NCBI GenBank assembly: GCA_963667495.1 | Contig: OY763426.1 | Location: forward strand, 2,667,460 to 2,731,459 | Direction of reading: 5' to 3' | Length of the DNA: 64,000 nt | Source: Candidatus Binatia bacterium | Lineage (GTDB): Bacteria; Desulfobacterota; Binatia; Bin18 | In this document: one piece after another, positions 9,051 through 53,687 of the stretch | Position numbering within the stretch: the stretch's first letter is position 1 | Layout of the letters: each line of letters opens with the position of its first letter | The notes under the pieces: generated by a model | Told to the model about the DNA's origin: nothing | Seen by the model: the letters and a program-made list of their open reading frames with translations, nothing else | The model's database searches: none | Position numbers and translations under genes: made by a program

Positions 9051-11057
9051 CTAATCGCTTTCGTGTTCTTCGGCTAATGCCGTCCATTCCACATACTGCT
9101 CGTCGAGTTGCTGTTTGACCTGCTCATACCGGCCGGTCACCTCGCGGGCTTTTTCTCGGTCTTGAAATGTCTTTTCGTCCGCAAGGCGGCGTTCGAGTTT
9201 TTCTTTGTGGTCCTCCAGCTTGGCGATATGCTGCTCCAGCGCGGCCAACCGTTTGGCCCGTTTTTGCCGTTCGGCCCGGGCGGCCTTTTGCTGTTGATAG
9301 GAGAGCTTGCCGTGCTTTGCCTCGCGGATGGCGGCCAGCGTCCCTTCAATACCCGCCGCGCTTGCCGTAGGCGAAGCAACGGCTACCCGCTGGACTACGC
9401 TCTGAAGGCGAACCTGTTCCTGGGGTGGAGACGAGTCTGTCTGTCGCTCTTTCCGCTCCAGAAACTCTTCAAACGTTCCGGGATAGGTGGTGCAGTACCC
9501 GTCTTGGAGTTCAAGCACTTTTGTCACCAGACCGCTGAGAAAATAGCGATCGTGCGACACCACGACAAAAGTTCCCTCATACTGCAACAGGGCTTCTTTC
9601 ACGATGTCTTTGGTGCGGATATCGAGATGGTTGGTGGGCTCATCCAGAATGAGCATATTCGAGGCCTGTAACAGCATTTTTGCTAACGCCAGTCGACTTT
9701 TTTCACCGCCGCTGAGCACGGCGACGCGCTTTTCAATCGCATCCCCGGAAAAGAGGAAGGCCCCCAACAGAGTCCGGAGCTGGGGGACGACGTCGGTGGC
9801 CGCTTCCCGGACGATCTCTTCATACACCGTGTTGTTGGTCTGTAAGCGTTCGGCCTGCTGCTGGGCATAGTAATCGAGGACGACCTGATGACCAAGCTGA
9901 CGGCTGCCTGAGGTGGGCTCTTCAACCCCGGACAGGATGCGGCTGAGGGTAGACTTGCCCGCCCCGTTGACGCCGACCACCGCCACCCGGTCTCCACTCT
10001 CAATCACCAAGTCTATATTCTCAAACACCTGCACGCTGTCGTAGCGTTTGCTAACCCCCTGTAATTCGATCACTCGCCGCCCGCTCCGAGGAGCCTGAGG
10101 AAAATGAAAGCGGACACCCTTGGGCGCGGTTTGGGGCGGGTCGAGCTTCTCCATCTTCTCAAGCTGTTTGACGCGACTCTGGACCTGCGGGGCTTTCCGG
10201 GCGTTATAGCGAAACGTATTGATAAAGCGGGTGAGGCGCTCAATCTCTTCCTGCTGCGTGTCATAGGCTTTTCGATACGACTCCAGGTGTTCTTCAAAAA
10301 CGCGCTCAAAAGTCGAGTAGTTGCCCGTATATTCGGTCAGGGCAGAGCGATGCAGGGCGACCACCCGATTAACCATCCGATCCAGAAAGGCCCGGTCGTG
10401 CGAAACGATGACAATGCTGCCGCGGTAATTGTGCAGATACGACTCAAGCCACAGTAGCGAGTCGAGATCGAGATGATTGGTCGGCTCATCGAGCAGCAAG
10501 ACATCGGGCTGCTGGAGCAGGAGCTTGGCCAGCGCAATCCGCATCTGCCAGCCCCCACTGAACGTCTCAGTACGCGCCGTAAACTGCGCCTCGTGAAAGC
10601 CCAGACCGGTCAGGACTTTAGCGACCTGGGCGTCGGCCTGAAACCCGTCGAGTTCTTCGATTCGGTGGTGGATGTCTCCGTAACGTACGATCAGTCCCTC
10701 TTGCGCCAGCGTCTCGGAGGCCGTTCCATCGGCGCTGTCGAGCGCGGCCTGAATCGTCTCCAGTTCCTGCTGTAGCGCGGTCAGCTCCGGTAAAGCAGAG
10801 CGCGTCTCAGCGAAGAGGTCACGTCCGGAAATGTCGATTCCCTCCTGGGGCAGATAGCCAATGCTGAGGTCCCGACCGCGCTGGACTCGGCCCGTATCGG
10901 GCTCAAGCTGTCCGGTCAAGAGGCGGAAAAGGGTTGTCTTGCCGGCACCGTTAGGGCCAACCAGACCCACCCGATCGCCTTTCCGAATATGCCAGTTGAG
11001 ATTGCGAAACAGTTCTTGTCCGCCAAAGGCGAGGGACAGATTGATAAGTTGGAGCAT
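9051..11057 (-). CDS. ABC-F family ATPase (Uup/YheS-like) with C-terminal coiled coil
   Basis: Two NBDs (GPNGAGKT / GVNGAGKS, FSGGW / LSGGE, LLDEPTNHLD twice), no TM segments. Confidence 0.92.
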   Translation of the reverse strand: MLQLINLSLAFGGQELFRNLNWHIRKGDRVGLVGPNGAGKTTLFRLLTGQLEPDTGRVQRGRDLSIGYLPQEGIDISGRDLFAETRSALPELTALQQELETIQAALDSADGTASETLAQEGLIVRYGDIHHRIEELDGFQADAQVAKVLTGLGFHEAQFTARTETFSGGWQMRIALAKLLLQQPDVLLLDEPTNHLDLDSLLWLESYLHNYRGSIVIVSHDRAFLDRMVNRVVALHRSALTEYTGNYSTFERVFEEHLESYRKAYDTQQEEIERLTRFINTFRYNARKAPQVQSRVKQLEKMEKLDPPQTAPKGVRFHFPQAPRSGRRVIELQGVSKRYDSVQVFENIDLVIESGDRVAVVGVNGAGKSTLSRILSGVEEPTSGSRQLGHQVVLDYYAQQQAERLQTNNTVYEEIVREAATDVVPQLRTLLGAFLFSGDAIEKRVAVLSGGEKSRLALAKMLLQASNMLILDEPTNHLDIRTKDIVKEALLQYEGTFVVVSHDRYFLSGLVTKVLELQDGYCTTYPGTFEEFLERKERQTDSSPPQEQVRLQSVVQRVAVASPTASAAGIEGTLAAIREAKHGKLSYQQQKAARAERQKRAKRLAALEQHIAKLEDHKEKLERRLADEKTFQDREKAREVTGRYEQVKQQLDEQYVEWTALAEEHESD

Positions 11058-25993: not shown

Positions 25994-26033
25994 AGTCACC
26001 TCCTGTTTTTTCTTTTCTTATAGCGCAAGAGCT

Positions 26034-26039
26034 ATTATA
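26034..26039 (-). promoter_or_regulatory. Putative -10 box (TATAAT) for the small Cys-rich gene
   Basis: Perfect TATAAT about 40 nt upstream of the ATG; no convincing -35 at 17-bp spacing. Confidence 0.35.
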
Positions 26040-26115
26040 AGGTCCAGGGGTTGATATCCAGGCAAGGCCGTGCAACTCAATACGCAGAGACATATCCACA
26101 AAGGAGGATGCCAGA

Positions 26116-26412
26116 ATGGGTACAACGGTCGTTCTGCTGGAAGTACAGGTCAAACCTGAATGCGTGCAAGAGGTGAAAGACTATCTGAAAGAGGCATTAC
26201 CGGATACGCGCGCCTACGACGGCTGCCAGAGTATTGATATCTACGGCAATCTCGACGAGTCGAACAACCTCGTGTTCTACGAACGCTGGGATTCCCGCGA
26301 GCACTATCAGAAATATCTGAATTGGCGGACCGAGAGAGGCGATTTTGAGAACCTCAGCTCAAAGTTGGCCAGTCCGGCGAGTATTCGGTATTACGACCGC
26401 ATTGATGTGTAG
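26116..26412 (+). CDS. ABM / putative quinol monooxygenase family protein
   Basis: TRAYDGC, FYERWDSREHYQKYLNWR; AAGGAGG RBS. Confidence 0.85.
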   Translation: MGTTVVLLEVQVKPECVQEVKDYLKEALPDTRAYDGCQSIDIYGNLDESNNLVFYERWDSREHYQKYLNWRTERGDFENLSSKLASPASIRYYDRIDV

Positions 26413-26443
26413 CGCGCTCCGCTCTGATCTGGGATTTTGAGAC

Positions 26444-26468
26444 AGGCCGGCTTTGCCGGCCTTTTTTT
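26444..26468 (+). terminator. Intrinsic terminator after the ABM gene (left of the accessory block)
   Basis: AGGCCGGC-TTT-GCCGGCCT hairpin followed by a T run. Confidence 0.75.
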
Positions 26469-26573
26469 GTTCGGCCAAACGAGGGGCTGGTCAGAACTCG
26501 CTCTGTCTTCAGCTTCAGTATATTAAAGTCAAAGTAGCGAGAACGCCCAGTAGATTGCGGGGTAGAGGAGAAG

Positions 26574-28664
26574 ATGAACGAACGTAAGATGGAGAAGGAT
26601 TTTACGGCTGCTCGTAGAGAGATTGAGCGTGTTATCAAAGAATTCCAACAACTCATGAACGGAGAGGTCAGTCTCGACCCGAGTCTGGAGGATATCTTCG
26701 GAGAATTGACCCACATCGAAGAGATGTGGAGGGAGAAGAGCTTTCAGGTCGCGGTTCTGGCTCTTGTAAAATCGGGTAAATCCACTTTGATTAACGCCCT
26801 GCTCGGGTCTGAATGTCTGCCTTCTTCAAACACCCCGGAAACCGCACGAATTGTTCGCATTCGTCATGAACCGGCGGTGGATGAGCCCGTCCTTGAAAAG
26901 GCCAGCGTTCAAATTGCTACCGGCGTTGCGGACATCCGAACTGAACTCCGATCACTGAACGCCTCTCAGCGGAAAGCAGACTCTACTCCTGCCGAGGGTG
27001 AACTGACCCTCTCTGCTCCCATCGTGTGTCTTGCCGGACGGTCTTTGGGAGAACAGAGATTCGAAGTTCTGGATACGCCGGGACCGAACGAGGCCGGCGC
27101 CGACATCTTGCGTGCACGGGTCGATAGCCTCCTAGGCAAAGCGGATGTGATCATCTATCTGCTCGACTACACGAAGCTGAAAACGGAAGAAGAAAAGTGG
27201 CTCTTCACCCGCCTCTCTTCGATGCGGCCCGAGTTGCTGAAGCAATGCTCGGAACGTTTGTTTTTCGTCGTCAACAAGATTGACCTGCAAAATAGGTCGG
27301 GGCTCTCCCAAGGGGAAACTCGTGACTACGTCGCATACCTCCTATCGGAGCAGGTCCCAGGTCTCACGATCTTACCGGAGCGCGTGCTTCTTGCGTCCGC
27401 CGAGCAAGGCTTGCTCGCTCGTATTGTGGAGAGTGGACAGGCTGATGACGGAGTGAGGCGTGACTTCGCCAAGCGCGTCTTCGGCCTTGATGGTAAAGAC
27501 AAGACGATTGAGCAATGTCAGTCTGCCGCACGAGAGTTGCTGAACGAGAGCAAACTCGGATCTCTGGAGGAGAATATCATTTCGTTCATCTATAAAAACC
27601 GTGAACGGGTGTTCCTCCAAAGCGTTGTCGAACGTTTGGATAATTTCCACGCGGAGTTCGACAACCGTCTTTGTGTGCTGTCAGAATCCCTCAATGAGCA
27701 CATCGACGTTCTCGCACAGAAATGTCGCGAGCTTGAGAAGAATCTAAAAGTTACGGACAGAGAATTCGCCGAGATTCGTTCTGATGCGGATAAAGTCACC
27801 GAGCGGGTAAAACAGTCAGTACAAGAACAGTTTTTGAATTTCAAAAATGTTGTCGTACAAGAGTTGGACAAGGCTAAGGAACAAAAGCCATCACGCTGGA
27901 AGCTTGTGAATGATCTCCTCGGCCGAGATAGCGGTCCGGTACAGGATGAAAAAACTGCGGAGGAACAATTAGAGGTAGCCCATAAGACAATTGAAGAAGC
28001 GCTACGTACAGAGTTTGAAATTTTCTATGCCAAGCTCAAACAAGAAGCGTGGGAAGAGCAAAAAAAGTTGTTTGAAGGGATCGAGTCTAGGTTACAACCC
28101 TTGGTCCGGCACACTGAGGAAGTAGTTGGCGACAGGCTTAATATTTTCTTGAACCCGGTACGAATAGAAATCCCGATACCGTCCATTGATGAATTTGGAA
28201 ACCAGATTCAGGAACGGATAGATATTATTCAGACCAAAACAGACCGAGAAACTCGTCAGGCTCGTAAGAGGGTTAAGGTGAAGGATGAGGGGTGGTGTAC
28301 CGATGCTCAGTACGAAGAGCGACGGTACGAAGAGACGCGCGAAGTGGATAAATACGTAGTGAACCGCGCCGCCTTACTCAAATTTTGGAATGCTCGTATC
28401 GAGAATATGACGAAAGCGTCAGTAAGGACGGCCGCTATAATCATTAAGCGAGAGATTGGGGACGCAACCAGATCGGCACGTTCAAAAATCGAGCGATATC
28501 GTGACCACTATGTACAAACAATGCACCGCTCACTCAAAATCGCTGAACGGGGCGAGGCGGCGCGAGAAAAAAGACTTGAAGAGGTGCAAACAGCTTCCGA
28601 AGAACTTCTCAAATTGAAATATGCAATTGAGAAATGCAGAGAGTTTCTGGAGGCTGAGGTATGA
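26574..28664 (+). CDS. Dynamin-like GTPase, CrfC/RdcA(YjdA)-like
   Basis: G1 ALVKSGKST, G2 LPSSNTPET, G3 DTPGPNEAG, LDYTKLK, G4 NKID, long helical C-terminal stalk; the DTPGPNEAG...LDYT signature recalls E. coli CrfC. Confidence 0.82.
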   Translation: MNERKMEKDFTAARREIERVIKEFQQLMNGEVSLDPSLEDIFGELTHIEEMWREKSFQVAVLALVKSGKSTLINALLGSECLPSSNTPETARIVRIRHEPAVDEPVLEKASVQIATGVADIRTELRSLNASQRKADSTPAEGELTLSAPIVCLAGRSLGEQRFEVLDTPGPNEAGADILRARVDSLLGKADVIIYLLDYTKLKTEEEKWLFTRLSSMRPELLKQCSERLFFVVNKIDLQNRSGLSQGETRDYVAYLLSEQVPGLTILPERVLLASAEQGLLARIVESGQADDGVRRDFAKRVFGLDGKDKTIEQCQSAARELLNESKLGSLEENIISFIYKNRERVFLQSVVERLDNFHAEFDNRLCVLSESLNEHIDVLAQKCRELEKNLKVTDREFAEIRSDADKVTERVKQSVQEQFLNFKNVVVQELDKAKEQKPSRWKLVNDLLGRDSGPVQDEKTAEEQLEVAHKTIEEALRTEFEIFYAKLKQEAWEEQKKLFEGIESRLQPLVRHTEEVVGDRLNIFLNPVRIEIPIPSIDEFGNQIQERIDIIQTKTDRETRQARKRVKVKDEGWCTDAQYEERRYEETREVDKYVVNRAALLKFWNARIENMTKASVRTAAIIIKREIGDATRSARSKIERYRDHYVQTMHRSLKIAERGEAAREKRLEEVQTASEELLKLKYAIEKCREFLEAEV

Positions 28665-29599
28665 CAGGCGACACTTCTTCTATAGCACACGACCTCCTTG
28701 GGACCGATGCTGACGCATATCCGTTACTTGCAGAGCGGATCGCGATTGACACGACCAATATTCTACGCAGTGCCGAAGCTGGACTGCGCGGTTTCCGGCG
28801 GCGCCCTTTGCTGCGTCGCCTCTGGAGTGGGCTACACAGCCACGGCCAAGAATTACAGGCCGCCATCGGTCAAGACCTTATCGCCGCCCAGCGTGCAACC
28901 TTGTCGCTTGTCCAGGAGGTGATGAAAGAAGAATCGCGGACTCAGTAGTGTGTTAACAAGGTCCTGGCAAATCTCCACGCCGTAAATCGTGATGTCGATG
29001 AATTATTGTGTCAACTGGAGGATATTCGGGCCGAGTTCTACTCAGCGATTAGTATGGAGACCGAGCGCCTCACTGCTGAAATCGACGCGGCCCGAAGACA
29101 TATTGACAGGGAGGCGAACGTGCGTCGGCTGACGGAGCGTTACCGCGTCGGCGATCTCAGCACTGGACCCGGCGAAATCCTTGGCGCTGCGCTCTACATG
29201 GCGTCCATTGCCTGGAACTATTGGGATGAGCCGGCCAGTCGATATGAAGAGGAGTGGAAGGCAGCGGATGCCGTAGTGCGTCAGAGACTTGGCTCCCGAC
29301 CACGTCGTATTGCGGAAGCTCTACTTGAAGCCGCAGAGACAGTCTCCGCGGACTTCATCGAGCCCGTGCTCTATCTGGCTGAATCTGCCACGGGCGTGCT
29401 CCGCGTCACCGGAATGCTGACGGAGCGACGCGCGGCGAATTTACTCGTTCAAGAGAAGAACGCGGAGGAGGCGGTATCAATCGTCACTGCTCTCTCTGAT
29501 CCGGACAAGCAACTTGAGTCTCTTCTTGTCCGGGATATCGAACTCGTGAAGTCCGTCGCTCGGGAGCTTTCGCCTGCTGCTCGCGAGCAAGTGGAGTAG
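28661..29599 (+). pseudogene. Helical dynamin partner (RdcB/YjcZ-like) interrupted by an in-frame TAG at 28946-28948
   Basis: ORFs 28661-28948 and 29006-29599 are in the same frame, separated by a single stop (SRTQ*CVNKV); ATGA overlap with the dynamin; family call from position and helical pattern only. Confidence 0.55.
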
Positions 29600-29603
29600 C
29601 GTT

Positions 29604-30536
29604 ATGCAACAAGGGCTCGCATTAGCTTCTGGTGGAGCACGGGGCGCATATCAGGCTGGGGCTTTACTACTTCTGGCCGAGCGTGGGGTCCGGTTCGATT
29701 CTCTCGCCGGAACGAGTATTGGCGCCCTCAACGGCGCGTTTTACGTCCAGGGTGATGGCTCGGCAGGACACCTCGAAAAATTGTGTCATCTGTGGCGTGC
29801 TGTGCCGAATGCCGGAATAATCCAGATCAGCGGCACCGCGATAGCGCGCTCCGAAGCAATGCTGGCTGCACGGGGAATCCCTTGGCCGGTTAGACTGGGG
29901 CTGAACCGATTGGTGGGTGGATCAATCTCGATTCTGAACCCGGAGCCGGTAGCTGCCATGCTGGACGAGTGGGTTGATTACGCTACGGTGTGTTCCTCGC
30001 CACGGGAGTTTATGATCGCCCTGCTTCGGGATGACATTTTCTCCGGAGGTATCGTGACGGCACCATGGCGAGAGGCTATGTATTTCAGTGCAGCCGAGCT
30101 TGGCCAGAAGGAATTGCGAGCAGCGTTATTGGCGGCCGCCGCCATTCCGTTGGCATTTCCTTCGCAGAAGGTGGGTGGAAAACGGTACGGCGATGCAGGA
30201 CTCTCAGACCCCCTCCCCGCATTGGAGTTGCATAGGCGGGGTGCCAAGCGGATTGTCTCTATCTTCCTCGCGGATAGTACGCCACAGAATAGGGCTGATT
30301 TCGCTGGCACGACCGTATTGCAGATCAGGCCGTCGGAAGTGATTGACACCGGACTACTTTCGACGTTTGACTTCAGTCACAAAACCATCGACCGGCTTAT
30401 TGACCTTGGGTATCGAGATGCCAAAGAAACATTTGGTGAAGCGCAGGAACTCTGGGAGCGTATGGTCGTGCTCAGAGCGCAAGGTGAGGCAAACATCGCC
30501 TTAGCCAATACTCTGCCAGATCGCACTCGACGATAG
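29604..30536 (+). CDS. Patatin-like phospholipase
   Basis: LALASGGARG oxyanion loop, GTSIG nucleophile elbow, AIPLAFP, YGDAG (DGG variant). Confidence 0.88.
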   Translation: MQQGLALASGGARGAYQAGALLLLAERGVRFDSLAGTSIGALNGAFYVQGDGSAGHLEKLCHLWRAVPNAGIIQISGTAIARSEAMLAARGIPWPVRLGLNRLVGGSISILNPEPVAAMLDEWVDYATVCSSPREFMIALLRDDIFSGGIVTAPWREAMYFSAAELGQKELRAALLAAAAIPLAFPSQKVGGKRYGDAGLSDPLPALELHRRGAKRIVSIFLADSTPQNRADFAGTTVLQIRPSEVIDTGLLSTFDFSHKTIDRLIDLGYRDAKETFGEAQELWERMVVLRAQGEANIALANTLPDRTRR

Positions 30537-30542
30537 GGTAGT

Positions 30543-30593
30543 ACTCTCAGTTACGCAGAGCGGCACGATTGCCGACGTATCCCCGAATATCAC
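30543..30593 (-). pseudogene. Truncated VapC/PIN toxin 5' remnant (MIFGDTSAIVPLCVTES)
   Basis: GTGA overlap with the antitoxin stop; N-terminus matches the PIN xxxxD[ST]SAIVPL pattern; the frame then runs into the antisense patatin end and stops at 30501. Confidence 0.6.
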
Positions 30594-30877
30594 CGGCCTT
30601 CTTCCCGCTCACGCACGACCGTCGAACGGACGGCTGCCTGGGGGTCGGAAGGGCGCAGGAGATCCCAAAAGTCTTCCGGTAAGGGTTTTTCCCCACGCCT
30701 CACAAGACCGGCTTTCTCCATGTCTTGCAGGTGCTCGGGGAGAGATACTTGACTGGGGGGAAGCAAACGTGCGACAGGGCGACCGTACTCGGTGATGATC
30801 ACTTCTTCGCCAGCTTTGACCTGACGCAAATACGCACTGAGCGACGTTTTGAGCTTGGATAGGGTTGTGGTCTGCAT
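30590..30877 (-). CDS. Phd/YefM-family type II antitoxin
   Basis: LKTSLSAYLRQVKAGEEVIITEYGRPVARLLP. Confidence 0.85.
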   Translation of the reverse strand: MQTTTLSKLKTSLSAYLRQVKAGEEVIITEYGRPVARLLPPSQVSLPEHLQDMEKAGLVRRGEKPLPEDFWDLLRPSDPQAAVRSTVVREREEGR

Positions 30878-32022: not shown

Positions 32023-32126
32023 GGGGTGGAGTAAATACACTAAGCGGTAATAGAGAGGACTGAGATATCAGCCGGCTGCCGTTGTACTGAACAACCTATG
32101 CCCTCGTGGTGGGAGTTCGCTTTAGA

Positions 32127-34007
32127 TTAATCTCCCGGCTTCTTGAACTTGAAGCCCATTTCTTTCAAAAACCGGGAAGGCTCTTTCCGATAGCCATTAT
32201 AGCTGCGAGCGCAACTGATATTGAGTGTCTCCTCAGTTCGGGTAATTGCGACAAAACAGTTTCTCCGTTCTTCCTCTATCTCCCGGCTTTTTGGACCCTT
32301 CTTCACTGCTTGATAGGATGGAAATACCCCATCAGCCATCCCAATCAAGAAAACGTGTTTGAATTCCAGTCCCTTTGAACCGTGCACGGTCAGGCATCGG
32401 ACAGAACCAGGTGACTGTGCAGGTGCCTTTGACTTAAGGTCCATCTCTTGAAGGTAAAGATGAAGTGTTATGTTCGCTGGGGTGTACTCCCGAAGAATAT
32501 CAGTGTGCAATTCCTGCCAAGTTTGTATTTCTTCTTCCTCGGTCTCGTCGTCCACCCAACTCTTCGTCCAGAACCATTTGAGCAATTCGAGAAAGGCTAG
32601 GCGCTCTACAAGCGCCTCAGAAACGTGACTTAGTAGATCTGTGTGACTGTTCGAGAGCACTTCAGAATTTGCAGTCTCTACCCACGCCCGCAGAAAATCA
32701 CCGCCGTCAAGGACTGCTCTCGCTTCGATTTCTTCAGTCTCGATAAGTAACCCAGTAAGCGCCTTCCAGGCCACACATACGCTTCGAAGAAATCCCCGAT
32801 CGTGCCGTCCGTTTGCAAGTCGCAACATTGCATACATCCAGCGAACTGCTGCACTCCCGAATTCTGTCTTTCGCTTGGCAACATAGGGCTCAATTTGCTG
32901 GCTCGCCAAAGCCCGTGCAGCTCGTTCCAAAAGTTTTGTTGAGCGGGCAATTACAACGCATTCTTCGTGGTTCCAACCGCATTTCCTTATAACCTCAGGT
33001 ATATTTTTTGCCTCTTCGTCTTCATTACCAAACATCTTCGCCGTCAATGTAGGAGACTCCGATGCGGACTTTTGGGCCACTAGGAGCTCTTTTCCGCTGG
33101 AACGAGTTTGATTGTGGACGATTAGATTATTTGCCAGCTGAATGATGACCGGTGGACAACGGAAGTTCTCTGGAAGTTGGATTACCTCCATTCCAAAGCT
33201 GGAACGAAGAGTTTGTAACCGCTCGGGACTTGCGCCGTTCCATTGATAAATAATTTGGTCGTCGTCTGCGACAACAAAAAGGTTCGGCTTTGCACCTGCG
33301 GCTAGAAGTGCAAGAAGGTCATATTGAGCCCGATTGGTGTCTTGAAATTCATCAACACAGATATACTGCCATGCAAGCTTGGTGAGCCGTGCGACCCCAG
33401 CATTCGTGGACAGCAACATCCGAGCGAAGTGTAAAAGTCCACCAAAATCCAGCCGGTTACTCTCCTGTAATGCCTCACAGTACGCGTTAAAAAGGGAGGG
33501 AATCCAAGAATATGAGTTCTTTACTCCGGGTGCCCCTGGTTTGCCGTTGTATGATTCTGCGAACAAGCGATCCAAGAGGACCAAAAGATTTTTCCGATCT
33601 TCTGGAATGGTCGAGGTATCACACTTGAGCGACCCAACGGCCTGCTCAAGAACTGCGAGACGGTCTCCGTCATTGGTGAGTAGTGAAAAATCCGGTTGTA
33701 TCCCTACATGGTTACCATGCTGACGTAAGATATCTCCAGCGAATGAATGAAAAGTGCAGAGACGCGCCCTGTCTGCCCGCCCTCCTATAAGCGCGTCAAG
33801 ACGTTGACGCATCTCGTCCGCCGCTTTTGTTGTGAAGGTAAGCGCGAGCACGCTTGCGTCTGGGGCAGTATGGAGAATACGCTCAGTACGTAAAGTCAGA
33901 ACGAGCGTCTTACCTGAACCTGGCCCGGCCAGGACCAGGAGCGGGCCTTTGTCCCATCTAACGGCTCGCTCCTGGTTTTCATTCAGAGGGTATTGCAATG
34001 AATTCAT
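32127..34007 (-). CDS. UvrD-like SF1A helicase (GajB-like)
   Basis: AGPGSGKT, VDEFQD, ENFRC, TVHGSKGLEF, EERRNCFVAITR; ATGA overlap with the OLD nuclease. Confidence 0.85.
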   Translation of the reverse strand: MNSLQYPLNENQERAVRWDKGPLLVLAGPGSGKTLVLTLRTERILHTAPDASVLALTFTTKAADEMRQRLDALIGGRADRARLCTFHSFAGDILRQHGNHVGIQPDFSLLTNDGDRLAVLEQAVGSLKCDTSTIPEDRKNLLVLLDRLFAESYNGKPGAPGVKNSYSWIPSLFNAYCEALQESNRLDFGGLLHFARMLLSTNAGVARLTKLAWQYICVDEFQDTNRAQYDLLALLAAGAKPNLFVVADDDQIIYQWNGASPERLQTLRSSFGMEVIQLPENFRCPPVIIQLANNLIVHNQTRSSGKELLVAQKSASESPTLTAKMFGNEDEEAKNIPEVIRKCGWNHEECVVIARSTKLLERAARALASQQIEPYVAKRKTEFGSAAVRWMYAMLRLANGRHDRGFLRSVCVAWKALTGLLIETEEIEARAVLDGGDFLRAWVETANSEVLSNSHTDLLSHVSEALVERLAFLELLKWFWTKSWVDDETEEEEIQTWQELHTDILREYTPANITLHLYLQEMDLKSKAPAQSPGSVRCLTVHGSKGLEFKHVFLIGMADGVFPSYQAVKKGPKSREIEEERRNCFVAITRTEETLNISCARSYNGYRKEPSRFLKEMGFKFKKPGD

Positions 34008-35704
34008 GCGGTTTTCACCAGTTGTAGTGCGGCATCAATGACATCTCGAAAAAGCTGAGGGACAAGACTTGGTTCGCTTTGCATTTCTGTCAAGACATCC
34101 TGTGCCGCACGTGTCTTTTGCTTCCTAGGGAACTTCTGTGCAATTTGTAACGGATATTCTGGATCACTTGGCTGTACTGTGACCTGTCGAAGCAATTGTT
34201 CACTTAGGAGGTTTTTATACACATCTTGAAAGCCATTACAGCATAGGTATTCTTCGATATTGGCCTCATTCATCATGAAGAGCACCTCACTTTCAGTTCG
34301 CCCGTTCAATTGTCTACGTACGGTCCTGGCATTGCTTCCGCCTTGCTGATCATTATCGGTTAGAACCACCCAGTGGATACCCATTCCGTTAGCGACTTTA
34401 AGACCTGTTTCCAGCGATATACCCGACTGATATGTCACAACCCGAATCCCTGCCTGTTCGAGGTTCTTTCCTAATATTCGTGCTACTTCGGGAATCAATG
34501 TACCCTCTGTTTCACCTTCTCCCAGAATCCAACATCTGGAGAAAAGTAACTCACCCCGATCCCGTCGGATATGAGAGTTAAATTTTCGCATGTCATCTGG
34601 ACCAAGGGCAATATCTCCAAGCCGGGACGCCTTAATGTTTTGCTTTTCTTTATGAATCCGGACAATGGACTCCGACGGAACTTCGGAAAGCAAATCCCCG
34701 CTATGAGTTGAAATAATCTTTTGTCCAGGGATCTTCTCAATTAGCTGCCATAGCGCTCTCACCGCGCTGGGATGTAGATGTGCCTCGGGCTCTTCCAGCG
34801 CGACAATTGGATGACCTTCATTCCACGCTTGCAAATAAGCGTTGAAAAGGGTGAGAACGGCGAGGCTCTGCGTCCCTTCGCCGTGTCGCCCGACCGGGAT
34901 TTTTGCTCCCGTTGTCGCGTTCAGATTTACAGCCGCCTTTGAGAGCATGTCGAAAATCCGACCGGGAACCGCCTCTACCGAGACGATATCCTCTTCGCCA
35001 TTGGTCACTGAGACTATATTCTGAATGTCCTTTAGCTGAGAGATTACTTGCGAGAAGCTTGTATGCGACGAGACTATCAGATCGTTTACTTCAGAGAGTT
35101 TGGATTCGATCTCCTGACGTTTCTCAGGCGTCAGTTGAGATTCCTTCAAAAAGGGTCTCCAAAATGTTCCACGGGAGTCAAACTGTTTTGTCGCGTCCCG
35201 TAGAGCGGAAAGATAGTAATACGAAACTTCGTTGCGGAACATGCCAAGTACTGCCTCGGAGAGTCCTGTCAGTGTGGCACCCGCAGCGTTTTGGAATTCC
35301 CAATCTTGGACAAAATCTTGTGTGTCTTTGTCGAACCTTGCGCTAACCCTCAAGATCACAAGGTAACGCCCGTCCGCTCCAACTTGGAGAATTCCTATAC
35401 GATTTAAGCTGGCAACTTGTTGTTCGTCCCATTGCCCAGGTTCATCCTCTTGAAAAGTCAGCTTGATGCTAATCGGCGGAGCATCCGAAGGTTCGGTGCT
35501 CGCCGTGGGCAGGTGGAAGTCGTACTCTTCAAACGAGCATCCTCGTCTTGTTCTTACGTCACGGAGAGCGAACCGAAGTGCGTCTAACACTGCTGTTTTG
35601 CCTGTATTGTTCTCGCCTATGAGGACAGTGGTACCTTTCAGTTCCAAATCCAGGCTGGTGATACCTCGGAAGTTTTCGATCTCCAAACGTTTTAGTTTCA
35701 TCAT
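34004..35704 (-). CDS. OLD-family ATP-dependent endonuclease, ABC ATPase + TOPRIM (GajA-like)
   Basis: IENFRGI, GENNTGKT, LEEPEAHLHP, STHS, TOPRIM ILGEGETE and TDND. Confidence 0.88.
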   Translation of the reverse strand: MMKLKRLEIENFRGITSLDLELKGTTVLIGENNTGKTAVLDALRFALRDVRTRRGCSFEEYDFHLPTASTEPSDAPPISIKLTFQEDEPGQWDEQQVASLNRIGILQVGADGRYLVILRVSARFDKDTQDFVQDWEFQNAAGATLTGLSEAVLGMFRNEVSYYYLSALRDATKQFDSRGTFWRPFLKESQLTPEKRQEIESKLSEVNDLIVSSHTSFSQVISQLKDIQNIVSVTNGEEDIVSVEAVPGRIFDMLSKAAVNLNATTGAKIPVGRHGEGTQSLAVLTLFNAYLQAWNEGHPIVALEEPEAHLHPSAVRALWQLIEKIPGQKIISTHSGDLLSEVPSESIVRIHKEKQNIKASRLGDIALGPDDMRKFNSHIRRDRGELLFSRCWILGEGETEGTLIPEVARILGKNLEQAGIRVVTYQSGISLETGLKVANGMGIHWVVLTDNDQQGGSNARTVRRQLNGRTESEVLFMMNEANIEEYLCCNGFQDVYKNLLSEQLLRQVTVQPSDPEYPLQIAQKFPRKQKTRAAQDVLTEMQSEPSLVPQLFRDVIDAALQLVKTA

Positions 35705-35724
35705 ACTATGAGAGCTATCCTTTT

Positions 35725-36597
35725 CTACGGTGTGAGGAATGCAACAATCCGTGGGTTGACTTTCTCCGGCTTTTCCAGATGCAGGAAATGTCCAAGCCCC
35801 GGATAGATTTCTTTTTCCAGGCCCTTGGTGAACAAATGGTCCATGGCGTTGAACGCTGTAAGACGACCTGGCCGATCTCGTGTGCCATGCAGGGCAAGCG
35901 TCGGAACCGTGGTGGGGGCGGCCATCTTTTCCCGGAGGGGCTGTAAGGCCGGATCTCGATTATCGGGATGAAACGTATGCCGGTAGTAGTTGAGCGCGGC
36001 GGTCACCACCCCCGGCTGCCGAAAGGTTTCTTTCACACTGGCCATGATCTCCGCCGGAATGTCGTACTCGGGTGAGGCGTCCTGCCACCAGCGCTCGATA
36101 AAGGCAAAATCATGGGCTGAGACCGCCTGTTCGGCGAACGGCATCTGAAAAAAGTAGGCGTGCCAGCCGCCTTTGATCATGTCGTAGTCTGAGGCTAATG
36201 CGCCCAGCATGGCCCCCGGATGCGCGACCGCAAGGGCGACAATTTTCTGTATCTGCTCCGGCGCGAGGGCGGCCGCTCCGAAGGTCGCAAACGCGCCCCA
36301 GTCATGTCCAACGATACGCGCCTGCTCGGCTCCCAAAGCCGGAATCAACGCGACGGCATCCTGCGCGAGTAGGACAGATTCATAGCGTCCGTCCGCTGGG
36401 GCAGACGTTGGGGCATAGCCGCGCATGAATGGTGCGACCGCATGAAAACCCGCCTCAGCCAAGGTCGGTAAGAGGGTACGATAGGTATAGGCATTATCCG
36501 GAAAGCCGTGCAAACACAGGACGAGCGGCCCGTGGCCGGCTTCGAGGCAGTGAAAGTGTATGCCGTTTGCCGTGACTGTGCGTGTGTGAAACTCCAT
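35725..36597 (-). CDS. Alpha/beta hydrolase, epoxide hydrolase-like
   Basis: LHGFPD, MRGY, GHDWGA (Asp nucleophile), GHFLHLEKP. Confidence 0.85.
   Translation of the reverse strand: MEFHTRTVTANGIHFHCLEAGHGPLVLCLHGFPDNAYTYRTLLPTLAEAGFHAVAPFMRGYAPTSAPADGRYESVLLAQDAVALIPALGAEQARIVGHDWGAFATFGAAALAPEQIQKIVALAVAHPGAMLGALASDYDMIKGGWHAYFFQMPFAEQAVSAHDFAFIERWWQDASPEYDIPAEIMASVKETFRQPGVVTAALNYYRHTFHPDNRDPALQPLREKMAAPTTVPTLALHGTRDRPGRLTAFNAMDHLFTKGLEKEIYPGLGHFLHLEKPEKVNPRIVAFLTP

Positions 36598-53614: not shown

Positions 53615-53687
<73 letters not shown>

Follow-up and report, generated by a model that had tools for sequence, protein, structure and literature searches.

An accessory dynamin-like GTPase/RdcB-like/patatin cassette in a Candidatus Binatia bacterium as a putative abortive-infection module

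We analysed a stretch of 64,000 nucleotides from a Candidatus Binatia bacterium (contig OY763426.1, positions 2,667,460 to 2,731,459; hereafter the window) and found that positions 26574-30536 carry three genes on the + strand, encoding in this order a dynamin-like GTPase, a helper protein of the RdcB/YjcZ type and a patatin. The ATG of gene 2 overlaps the TGA of gene 1 (ATGA junction) and gene 3 starts 4 nt past the gene 2 stop; the 4.07-kb cassette holds no genes beyond these three. With moderate confidence, we read the cassette as an accessory three-gene conflict (abortive-infection) module that works on the RdcA-RdcB principle. Set against the characterised systems, it would be an RdcAB-type switch wired to a different, putatively lethal effector. 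The features of the cassette are as follows.

26477..30551, no strand: 4.07-kb accessory cassette with three genes, missing in close strains
26574..28664, + strand: gene 1, dynamin-like GTPase of the RdcA/CrfC class, 696 amino acids (aa), intact (Pfam Dynamin_N, BDLP fold)
28661..29599, + strand: gene 2, helical partner, probably a remote member of the RdcB/YjcZ family, a pseudogene in this strain (profile comparison)
28946..28948, + strand: TAG nonsense codon in gene 2 in place of a near-invariant Tyr (TQYCVN motif; homologue alignment)
29604..30536, + strand: gene 3, patatin-like phospholipase, 310 aa, catalytic dyad intact (Pfam Patatin)

The product of gene 1 matched Pfam Dynamin_N (4.7e-16, 59.7 bits) and was 25% identical to E. 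coli RdcA over ~500 aa (BLASTP, E 4e-27). It scored 83 bits against the NCBIfam CrfC model (NF007368; cut-off 1146), as a homologue of RdcA and not an equivalog. An AlphaFold (AF2) model with a pLDDT of 76 predicted a fold for which Foldseek retrieved the BDLP structures 2j68/2j69 and 6j72 (E 1e-12 to 1e-13), and the model also matched IniA and mitofusins (E 1e-10 to 1e-13 overall). Residues of the G1-G4 motifs (K66, G68, K69, S70, T90, D167-G170, N234, K235 and D237) were invariant in an alignment of 26 sequences, and the GTPase domain is combined with a helical neck and trunk, as in the bacterial dynamin-like class. We found no hydrophobic paddle or transmembrane segment in gene 1 (no 19-residue Kyte-Doolittle window above 1.6), and the tip of its stalk (residues 523-597, with a β-hairpin at 557-591) was strongly charged. 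Hydrophobic segments were likewise missing from the other two proteins, and all three are predicted to be soluble. An initial annotation of this DNA had proposed that the dynamin pair senses or remodels phage-perturbed membrane. Neither these properties nor the published behaviour of RdcA, a GTP-sensitive switch (PMC13463826), support that mechanism.

A profile scan of genome contigs with the dynamin alignment, for which a generic P-loop pattern was used, gave distant dynamins only among the matches listed (L025 and L034 were informative). Near-full-length homologues of gene 1 with 28-33% identity were found in green algae (Micractinium, Chlorella, Coccomyxa, Cymbomonas, Myrmecia and others) and in other eukaryotic transcriptomes (P0070, P0074, P0076, P0101, P0104, P0109, P0112-P0114, P0117, P0119), which hints at a link between bacteria and eukaryotes for this subfamily.

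Gene 2 was harder to place. Scans with Pfam, PADLOC and NCBIfam produced no direct family match, and neither a GTPase domain nor a GAP1 domain was detected in the Pfam scans. The AF2 model was all-helical, with a confidently modelled C-terminal bundle; a Foldseek search of the model against the PDB returned nothing below E 0.8, and a sequence search of the PDB gave no match. When a profile of 31 homologues was run against 1.84 billion representatives, it retrieved 74 proteins, and the gene 2 family is therefore small. Distant matches of this profile included P0351 and P0347 (E 1.4e-6), the latter a YjcZ protein by Pfam at 7e-37. In hhalign, the profile aligned to a YjcZ-like alignment that included E. 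coli RdcB with 98.1% probability (E 1e-13, 231 columns), an alignment drawn in part from matches of the same gene 2 profile, with the YjcZ identity itself resting on independent Pfam evidence. It also aligned to the RdcB-family protein of an E. coli island operon described below (94.9%, E 4e-8); the comparison with the partner protein from Cognaticolwellia was negative by hhalign or BLASTP. Judged by these profile comparisons, gene 2 is most likely a remote RdcB/YjcZ homologue, and its product is probably an adaptor. Residues ~39-55 (window 28775-28825) form an almost invariant arginine-rich motif, GLRGFRRRPLLRRLW, whose counterpart in YjcZ/RdcB alignments is the conserved R..RL motif; it may serve to bind a partner, a nucleotide or lipid. 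A scan of metagenome contigs with gene 2 found just 2 loci.

In the window gene 2 is split by an in-frame TAG, while its homologues are all intact (37/37, ~303-329 aa). The split leaves a fragment of 95 aa and a potential second one of 197 aa that would begin at TTG 29006. The same TAG was present in contigs of three sequencing runs (X1, X4 and X5) from two studies, so it is real and not an assembly error. Strain X6, with 5 differences in 1,101 nt (99.5% identical), has TAT at this position. Recoding of the TAG was considered and ruled out, given TAT in the sister strain, Tyr in every homologue, and the use of TAG as the stop codon of gene 2 itself. Most likely, to judge by these alignments, the Tyr-to-TAG mutation is very recent and the module has been switched off in this strain; with its adaptor split, it is probably inactive here.

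Gene 3 was assigned to the patatins by Pfam (3.3e-22; 80 bits against a cut-off of 27.7). G36, S38 and G40 of the GTSIG motif and D197 were invariant, leaving the Ser38-Asp197 dyad intact, and the oxyanion motif GGxRG (GGARG here) was conserved, as in the patatin-like phospholipase superfamily. The nearest solved structure was PlpD, and the next by sequence included the secreted toxins ExoU and VipD. Gene 3 had no match to the phospholipase effectors of PADLOC (CapV-type), and it scored 15 bits against NCBIfam CBASS_lipase (NF041079; cut-off 200). In strain X6, 124 bp appear to be missing from the 3' part of the patatin gene (window 30358-30481), which would cause a frameshift and loss of the conserved D256-D272. 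The evidence for this deletion is a single Logan contig; if real, it would mean that the cassette had been inactivated twice, independently. Outside the clade linked to dynamins, the nearest patatin (P0223, L093 7576-10525; 40% identity) is encoded by a stand-alone gene. An 82-aa Cmr2_N fragment precedes it, and HigB-like, Zeta-toxin and M78-peptidase genes are close by, a mobile or defence setting unlike that of the trio for a patatin of this effector family.

The three genes travel together. They were collinear in nine of nine independent loci (the window, L001/2, L003-5, L087, L089, L090, L091, L092 and the P0036 contig), among which dynamin identity falls to as low as 26%, and the order dynamin, gene 2, patatin was held at every locus containing gene 2. 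By a hand count of contigs matched by length across the three sets of homologues, which gives a lower bound, at least 24 of the 41 patatin clusters on contigs of at least 5 kb were linked to a dynamin or to gene 2; this linkage stops at ~40% patatin identity, at P0223. Far more distant dynamin/partner/patatin sets were found in Cognaticolwellia mytili and Dactylosporangium. The Cognaticolwellia dynamin is 30% identical to RdcA and adjoins ArdC-like and helicase genes. Two fusion proteins link parts of the module physically: in P0355 a YjcZ-like N-domain is fused to a patatin, and P0360 combines a gene-2-like N-domain, a zinc ribbon and a dynamin GTPase.

We then compared the locus with those of close strains, taken as contigs that encode exactly the same ABM-domain protein as the gene upstream of the cassette. 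Eight such loci were available (L096-L103), and the trio was missing in all eight. The features at the two edges of the cassette are as follows.

26444..26470, + strand: intrinsic terminator of the upstream ABM-domain gene, marking the left edge of the cassette (8-pair hairpin at 26444-26462, then a T-run)
30552..30593, - strand: 5' remnant of a vapC/PIN toxin gene, ~14 codons, cut off by the cassette (from the intact copy in L096)
30590..30877, - strand: orphan Phd/YefM antitoxin, gene intact (Pfam PhdYeFM 1e-10; TIGR01552)

In L096 the order is ABM gene, intact vapC-phd, luciferase-like gene, and the PIN/VapC protein of 143 aa is intact and overlaps the phd stop. BLASTN alignments with L096 and L097 break at window positions 26476/26467 on the left and 30552/30576 on the right, with 94-99% identity outside. 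Insertion is thus directly shown by strains that have these flanks without window 26477..30551, and the reduction of vapC to ~14 codons shows that in the broken toxin-antitoxin locus the toxin gene was replaced by the cassette. In two more distant relatives (L001 and L003), this site is likewise occupied by the trio, with both phd and the neighbouring Gabija genes missing. GC content at third codon positions (GC3) was 0.54 for the dynamin gene and 0.57-0.59 for genes 2 and 3, against 0.65-0.76 for flanking core genes; the value for Gabija was 0.48. Upstream of gene 1, a simple scan for sigma-70 promoters was negative.

Much of the initial annotation, which had been made from the window sequence, stood. 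Its description of three tightly coupled genes, inserted between an intrinsic terminator and a broken toxin-antitoxin locus, about 1.6 kb from Gabija and with codon usage unlike that of the flanks, agrees with what we found. So does its assignment of the first two genes to an RdcA/CrfC-type GTPase and a helical partner related, if remotely, to RdcB/YjcZ, and its expectation that the patatin would be conserved with the dynamin pair. It was also right that the cassette has no CD-NTase, that the trio is not Eleos by PADLOC, that it gives no full PADLOC match, and that it is accessory and defence-associated, as seen in its presence and absence among strains and in the L092 island described below.

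In the mechanism that we propose, the dynamin would be both switch and sensor, with the GTPase domain setting the on/off state and the fast-diverging distal stalk receiving the cue. This cue may be a component of the invader or, as with RdcA, a collapse of the GTP pool. The RdcB-like adaptor would assemble the dynamin with the patatin and would hold the patatin or release it; once activated, the patatin would hydrolyse the lipids of the cell's own membrane, leading to growth arrest or death (abortive infection). In sister lineages, a TIR, CHAT or nucleoside-phosphorylase domain fused to the dynamin C-terminus would act in place of adaptor and patatin.

The last step of this scheme draws on the domain architectures of full-length dynamin homologues (~29-39% identical). 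Several of these have a C-terminal TIR_2, CHAT or nucleoside-phosphorylase (PNP_UDP_1) domain, in precisely the position that gene 2 and the patatin would otherwise take; in others, an EAD1, EAD11 or TIR domain is present at the N-terminus. Neither of the two TIR-fused dynamins that were inspected has gene 2 or a patatin next to it; their surroundings contain NACHT, nSTAND1-TIR, ThsB-TIR and TPR-patatin genes. The genes downstream of TIR-fused dynamins, including that in L104, were not gene-2-like. As adaptor and patatin are swapped for a fused TIR, CHAT or nucleoside phosphorylase, an enzyme domain occupies the effector position.

This arrangement speaks against a different division of labour, in which the dynamin is itself the effector and seals or stabilises the membrane to delay lysis, in the manner of DynA and, presumably, of Eleos, with the RdcB-like protein and the phospholipase as its regulators. 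Such a role was proposed for the E. coli operon by the authors who described it (PMC12922286). DynA and Eleos are indeed dynamin-based defences that need GTPase activity, and the predicted BDLP/mitofusin-like fold of gene 1 would suit it. The lack of a hydrophobic paddle or transmembrane segment and the highly charged stalk tip would not. The patatin is moreover the most conserved of the three proteins and the dynamin the most variable, the pattern expected of an effector and a sensor respectively. Overall, we consider a dynamin effector improbable.

The rates of divergence fit the favoured reading of a dynamin switch that controls a patatin effector. Compared with L001, the ratio of nonsynonymous to synonymous substitution rates (dN/dS) was 0.35 for the dynamin, 0.27 for gene 2 and 0.16 for the patatin, while core neighbours with similar dS gave 0.03-0.06. 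Between gene 1 and P0005, the GTPase domain is 88-97% identical, and the stalk at ~400-480 and 560-600 just 33-40%. The patatin is 92-93% identical. Diversification thus falls on the sensor-like part, and the enzyme is preserved. As dN/dS never exceeded 1 in any window of the alignment, we do not claim positive selection.

Similar dS in the trio and its flanks means that the cassette has diverged along with the genome between the window and L001, and this would also be expected if the trio were a physiological regulator, an RdcAB-like sensor of GTP or (p)ppGpp that turns on a lipase for remodelling or recycling of membrane lipids in starvation or at growth-phase transitions. The sole experimentally studied relative, RdcA-RdcB-DgcE, is a sensor of metabolic state, the three proteins all appear to be soluble, and some trio loci lie among ordinary metabolic genes. 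A housekeeping regulator is harder to reconcile with the lack of the cassette in strains with identical flanks, with the presence in sister dynamins of TIR, CHAT, nucleoside-phosphorylase or EAD domains, which are characteristic of cell-suicide systems, or with members that adjoin restriction-modification, Druantia-like, Gabija, NACHT and TIR genes. One of these neighbourhoods is L092 (1-18046), a dense island in which the trio is flanked by a type IIG restriction-modification gene split by a DDE-transposase insertion sequence, a DrmD-like SNF2 helicase gene and a gene for a DruE-like giant helicase of ~2,100 aa (PADLOC 2e-105). On the P0036 contig, a candidate RADAR-like pair stands next to the trio, recognised by size and a weak deaminase match only. 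Inactivating lesions also recur: besides the TAG in the window and the apparent patatin deletion in X6, the dynamin gene of E. coli CFT073 is frameshifted and IS21 insertions interrupt the operon in other E. coli. For these reasons we regard a purely physiological role as unlikely.

These E. coli operons, which comprise a dynamin, an RdcB-family protein and a patatin, were detected by megablast in 2,613 of 5,426 complete genomes and are sometimes disrupted by IS21. The CFT073 copy (L106 21265-23662) has the frameshifted dynamin, IS21-family insertions were found in strains STE15 and PSUO2, and an intact copy lies in a CP4-44-like element. A 2026 paper called the E. coli operons putative dynamin phage defence systems, reported that the island operons adjoin EcoKI and Druantia and are induced in lysogens, and noted that its authors had come across no published connection of phospholipases with bacterial dynamins (PMC12922286). 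The island operons (PAI-CFT073-aspV, MP1 island 8 and the CP4-44-like element) share with the window the gene order and the three protein classes. They are likewise translationally coupled (by 4-nt overlaps there, by an ATGA overlap and a 4-nt gap in the window), accessory, located in islands or a hotspot, and often pseudogenised. The homology is remote: the dynamins are 23% identical over 591 aa (E 7e-22) and the patatins 27% (E 2e-17), whereas the adaptors can be matched by profile comparison only. In E. coli the proteins are longer, at 798, 301 and 356 aa, and it was homologues of the window dynamin that showed the TIR, CHAT, nucleoside-phosphorylase and EAD fusions. By sequence comparison, the window trio is a distant member of this operon class, which is widely annotated, was once flagged as putative defence and was never catalogued. 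The novelty claimed at the outset for the architecture is overstated; the anatomy and general idea of the initial annotation were right, and its claims of novelty and of membrane sensing are not supported.

The E. coli setting also bears on an offensive or addiction function, in which the patatin would be a toxin directed at other cells or hosts, like ExoU and VipD, or would stabilise the genomic island on which it lies. In E. coli, the operon is carried by a pathogenicity island and by CP4-like integrative elements that have toxin-antitoxin and antirestriction genes, ExoU and VipD follow PlpD among the closest solved patatins, and the window cassette has replaced the toxin of a toxin-antitoxin pair. 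We nevertheless rate this explanation as very improbable, since no secretion-system gene or signal was found in the cassette, the hosts are mostly environmental metagenome bacteria, and the tight coupling to a cytoplasmic GTPase switch would be left unexplained.

RdcA is the only relative of gene 1 with experimental data, and it supplies the model for the proposed conflict module. It works as a GTP-sensitive switch that binds an enzyme through its C-terminal part and so activates it, and the complexes depend on RdcB for their assembly (PMC13463826). Like the window cassette, the RdcA-RdcB-DgcE system (YjdA/CrfC-YjcZ) has a dynamin-like GTPase gene followed by an overlapping gene for a ~300-aa helical partner, and there GTPase and partner control a separate enzyme. 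The target of RdcA-RdcB is a membrane diguanylate cyclase (DgcE, MASE1-GGDEF-EAL) encoded elsewhere, whereas in the window a patatin is encoded in the operon; no GGDEF gene was found in the cassette or its flanks, and the patatin occupies the downstream position. In addition, rdcAB belongs to the core genome of E. coli and the window cassette is accessory.

Other systems with a dynamin or a patatin were compared in the same way. Eleos also has dynamin-superfamily GTPases in defence islands, and LeoA (4aur) was among the fold matches of gene 1. Eleos consists of two or three dynamin-like GTPases with no enzyme effector, and the cassette encodes a single GTPase together with a phospholipase and a helical partner that is not a GTPase. 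Gene 1 gave a weak match to the LeoBC hidden Markov model of PADLOC (38 bits, 2.3e-10) and none to LeoA. We ruled out Eleos, which requires at least two adjacent GTPases, because just one is present here; gene 2 is all-helical and without a GTPase domain. CBASS with CapV shares the use of a patatin as presumed membrane-destroying effector of a suicide system. It is activated by a cyclic nucleotide, while activation in the window would be by protein partners. We rejected CBASS because the cassette lacks a cyclase and its patatin does not resemble CapV, which is activated by cGAMP; neither a gene for a CD-NTase or another nucleotide signal nor a PADLOC match to CBASS was found. B. subtilis DynA is another bacterial dynamin-like protein linked to phage resistance. 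It differs in being two-headed, membrane-binding, housekeeping and without a partner enzyme, and with 48 bits for gene 1 against the NCBIfam DynA cut-off of 1600 the trio is not DynA.

Several observations weigh against a conflict module on the RdcA-RdcB principle. Some host loci of the trio are not obvious defence islands (L087 and L105). No trio was found on IMG/VR contigs, no dynamin match in phage records and no patatin match in plasmid records. PADLOC v2 has no model for the trio or for the E. coli operon. The dN/dS ratios below 1 in every window belong here as well. The link of gene 2 to RdcB is remote: a Pfam scan of all 31 gene-2 homologues gave coiled-coil noise only and did not reach YjcZ, comparison with the single E. 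coli RdcB sequence was negative by hhalign or BLASTP, and the strongest alignment carries the partial overlap of profiles mentioned above. Finally, the copy in the window has a nonsense mutation and may do nothing here.

The logic of a constant NTPase switch and a constant partner with interchangeable effectors is shared with the NTPase-centred modular conflict systems (STAND/NLR-like and DO-GTPase-GAP1; Kaur et al. 2020, PMC7159879). The effectors and adaptors in both include TIR, caspase-like/CHAT, nucleoside-phosphorylase and EAD domains. The NTPase of the window is dynamin-like and not a STAND or DO-GTPase, and gene 2 has no GAP1; dynamins and patatin are not mentioned by Kaur et al. We tentatively suggest a broader possibility, less probable than the reading of the cassette itself, that RdcA-class dynamins with a hypervariable stalk form an unrecognised family of immune sensors. 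They would be the dynamin counterpart of STAND/NLR proteins, with interchangeable death effectors (a patatin via an RdcB-like adaptor, a fused TIR, CHAT or nucleoside phosphorylase, or EAD-recruited ones) and full-length homologues in green algae and other eukaryotes, and the E. coli operon would be one branch. If the favoured reading of the cassette is right, a dynamin-like GTPase would act here as switch or sensor of a cell-suicide module and not as a membrane-remodelling machine. The 'trigger enzyme' principle of RdcA would extend from cyclic di-GMP signalling to immunity, and a new NTPase class would join the modular immune receptors. The presence of a distantly homologous operon in nearly half of complete E. 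coli genomes makes the question directly testable. For the window itself the biology is modest: its copy of the trio was broken recently and lies in a small defence hotspot, where Gabija was captured too.

The neighbouring Gabija genes form a complete pair between a luciferase-like gene and an abhydrolase gene.

32035..35733, - strand: Gabija cassette, with GajB at 32127..34007 and GajA at 34004..35704 (PADLOC)

GajB and GajA were full-length PADLOC matches (3.6e-219 and 2.9e-196), and 1,591 nt separate the patatin stop from the GajB stop. This stretch of 32035..35733 was missing in all related loci examined (L096, L097, L001 and L003). Gabija is a second, separate strain-specific insertion, and the site therefore comprises two adjacent integration hotspots.

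In seven of the close strains (L097-L103), an ORF of 185 aa with low GC (~10457-11014, minus strand) lies at the cassette site, where vapC would be. It had no Pfam or PADLOC match; a D..E.K-like motif (DLDFIFEKDGVAYGIEVKN) resembles that of PD-(D/E)xK nucleases, and the ORF may be another defence cargo of the hotspot. Metatranscriptome run X20 contained contigs 90-99% identical to the window and with partial coverage of each of the three genes (26006-26705 and three other stretches), which is weak evidence that the genes are expressed in relatives. One of these contigs spans the ABM gene, the terminator and the start of the dynamin gene and could reflect read-through transcription or DNA carry-over. 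A tRNA gene at 53615-53687 was the sole Rfam match of the window.

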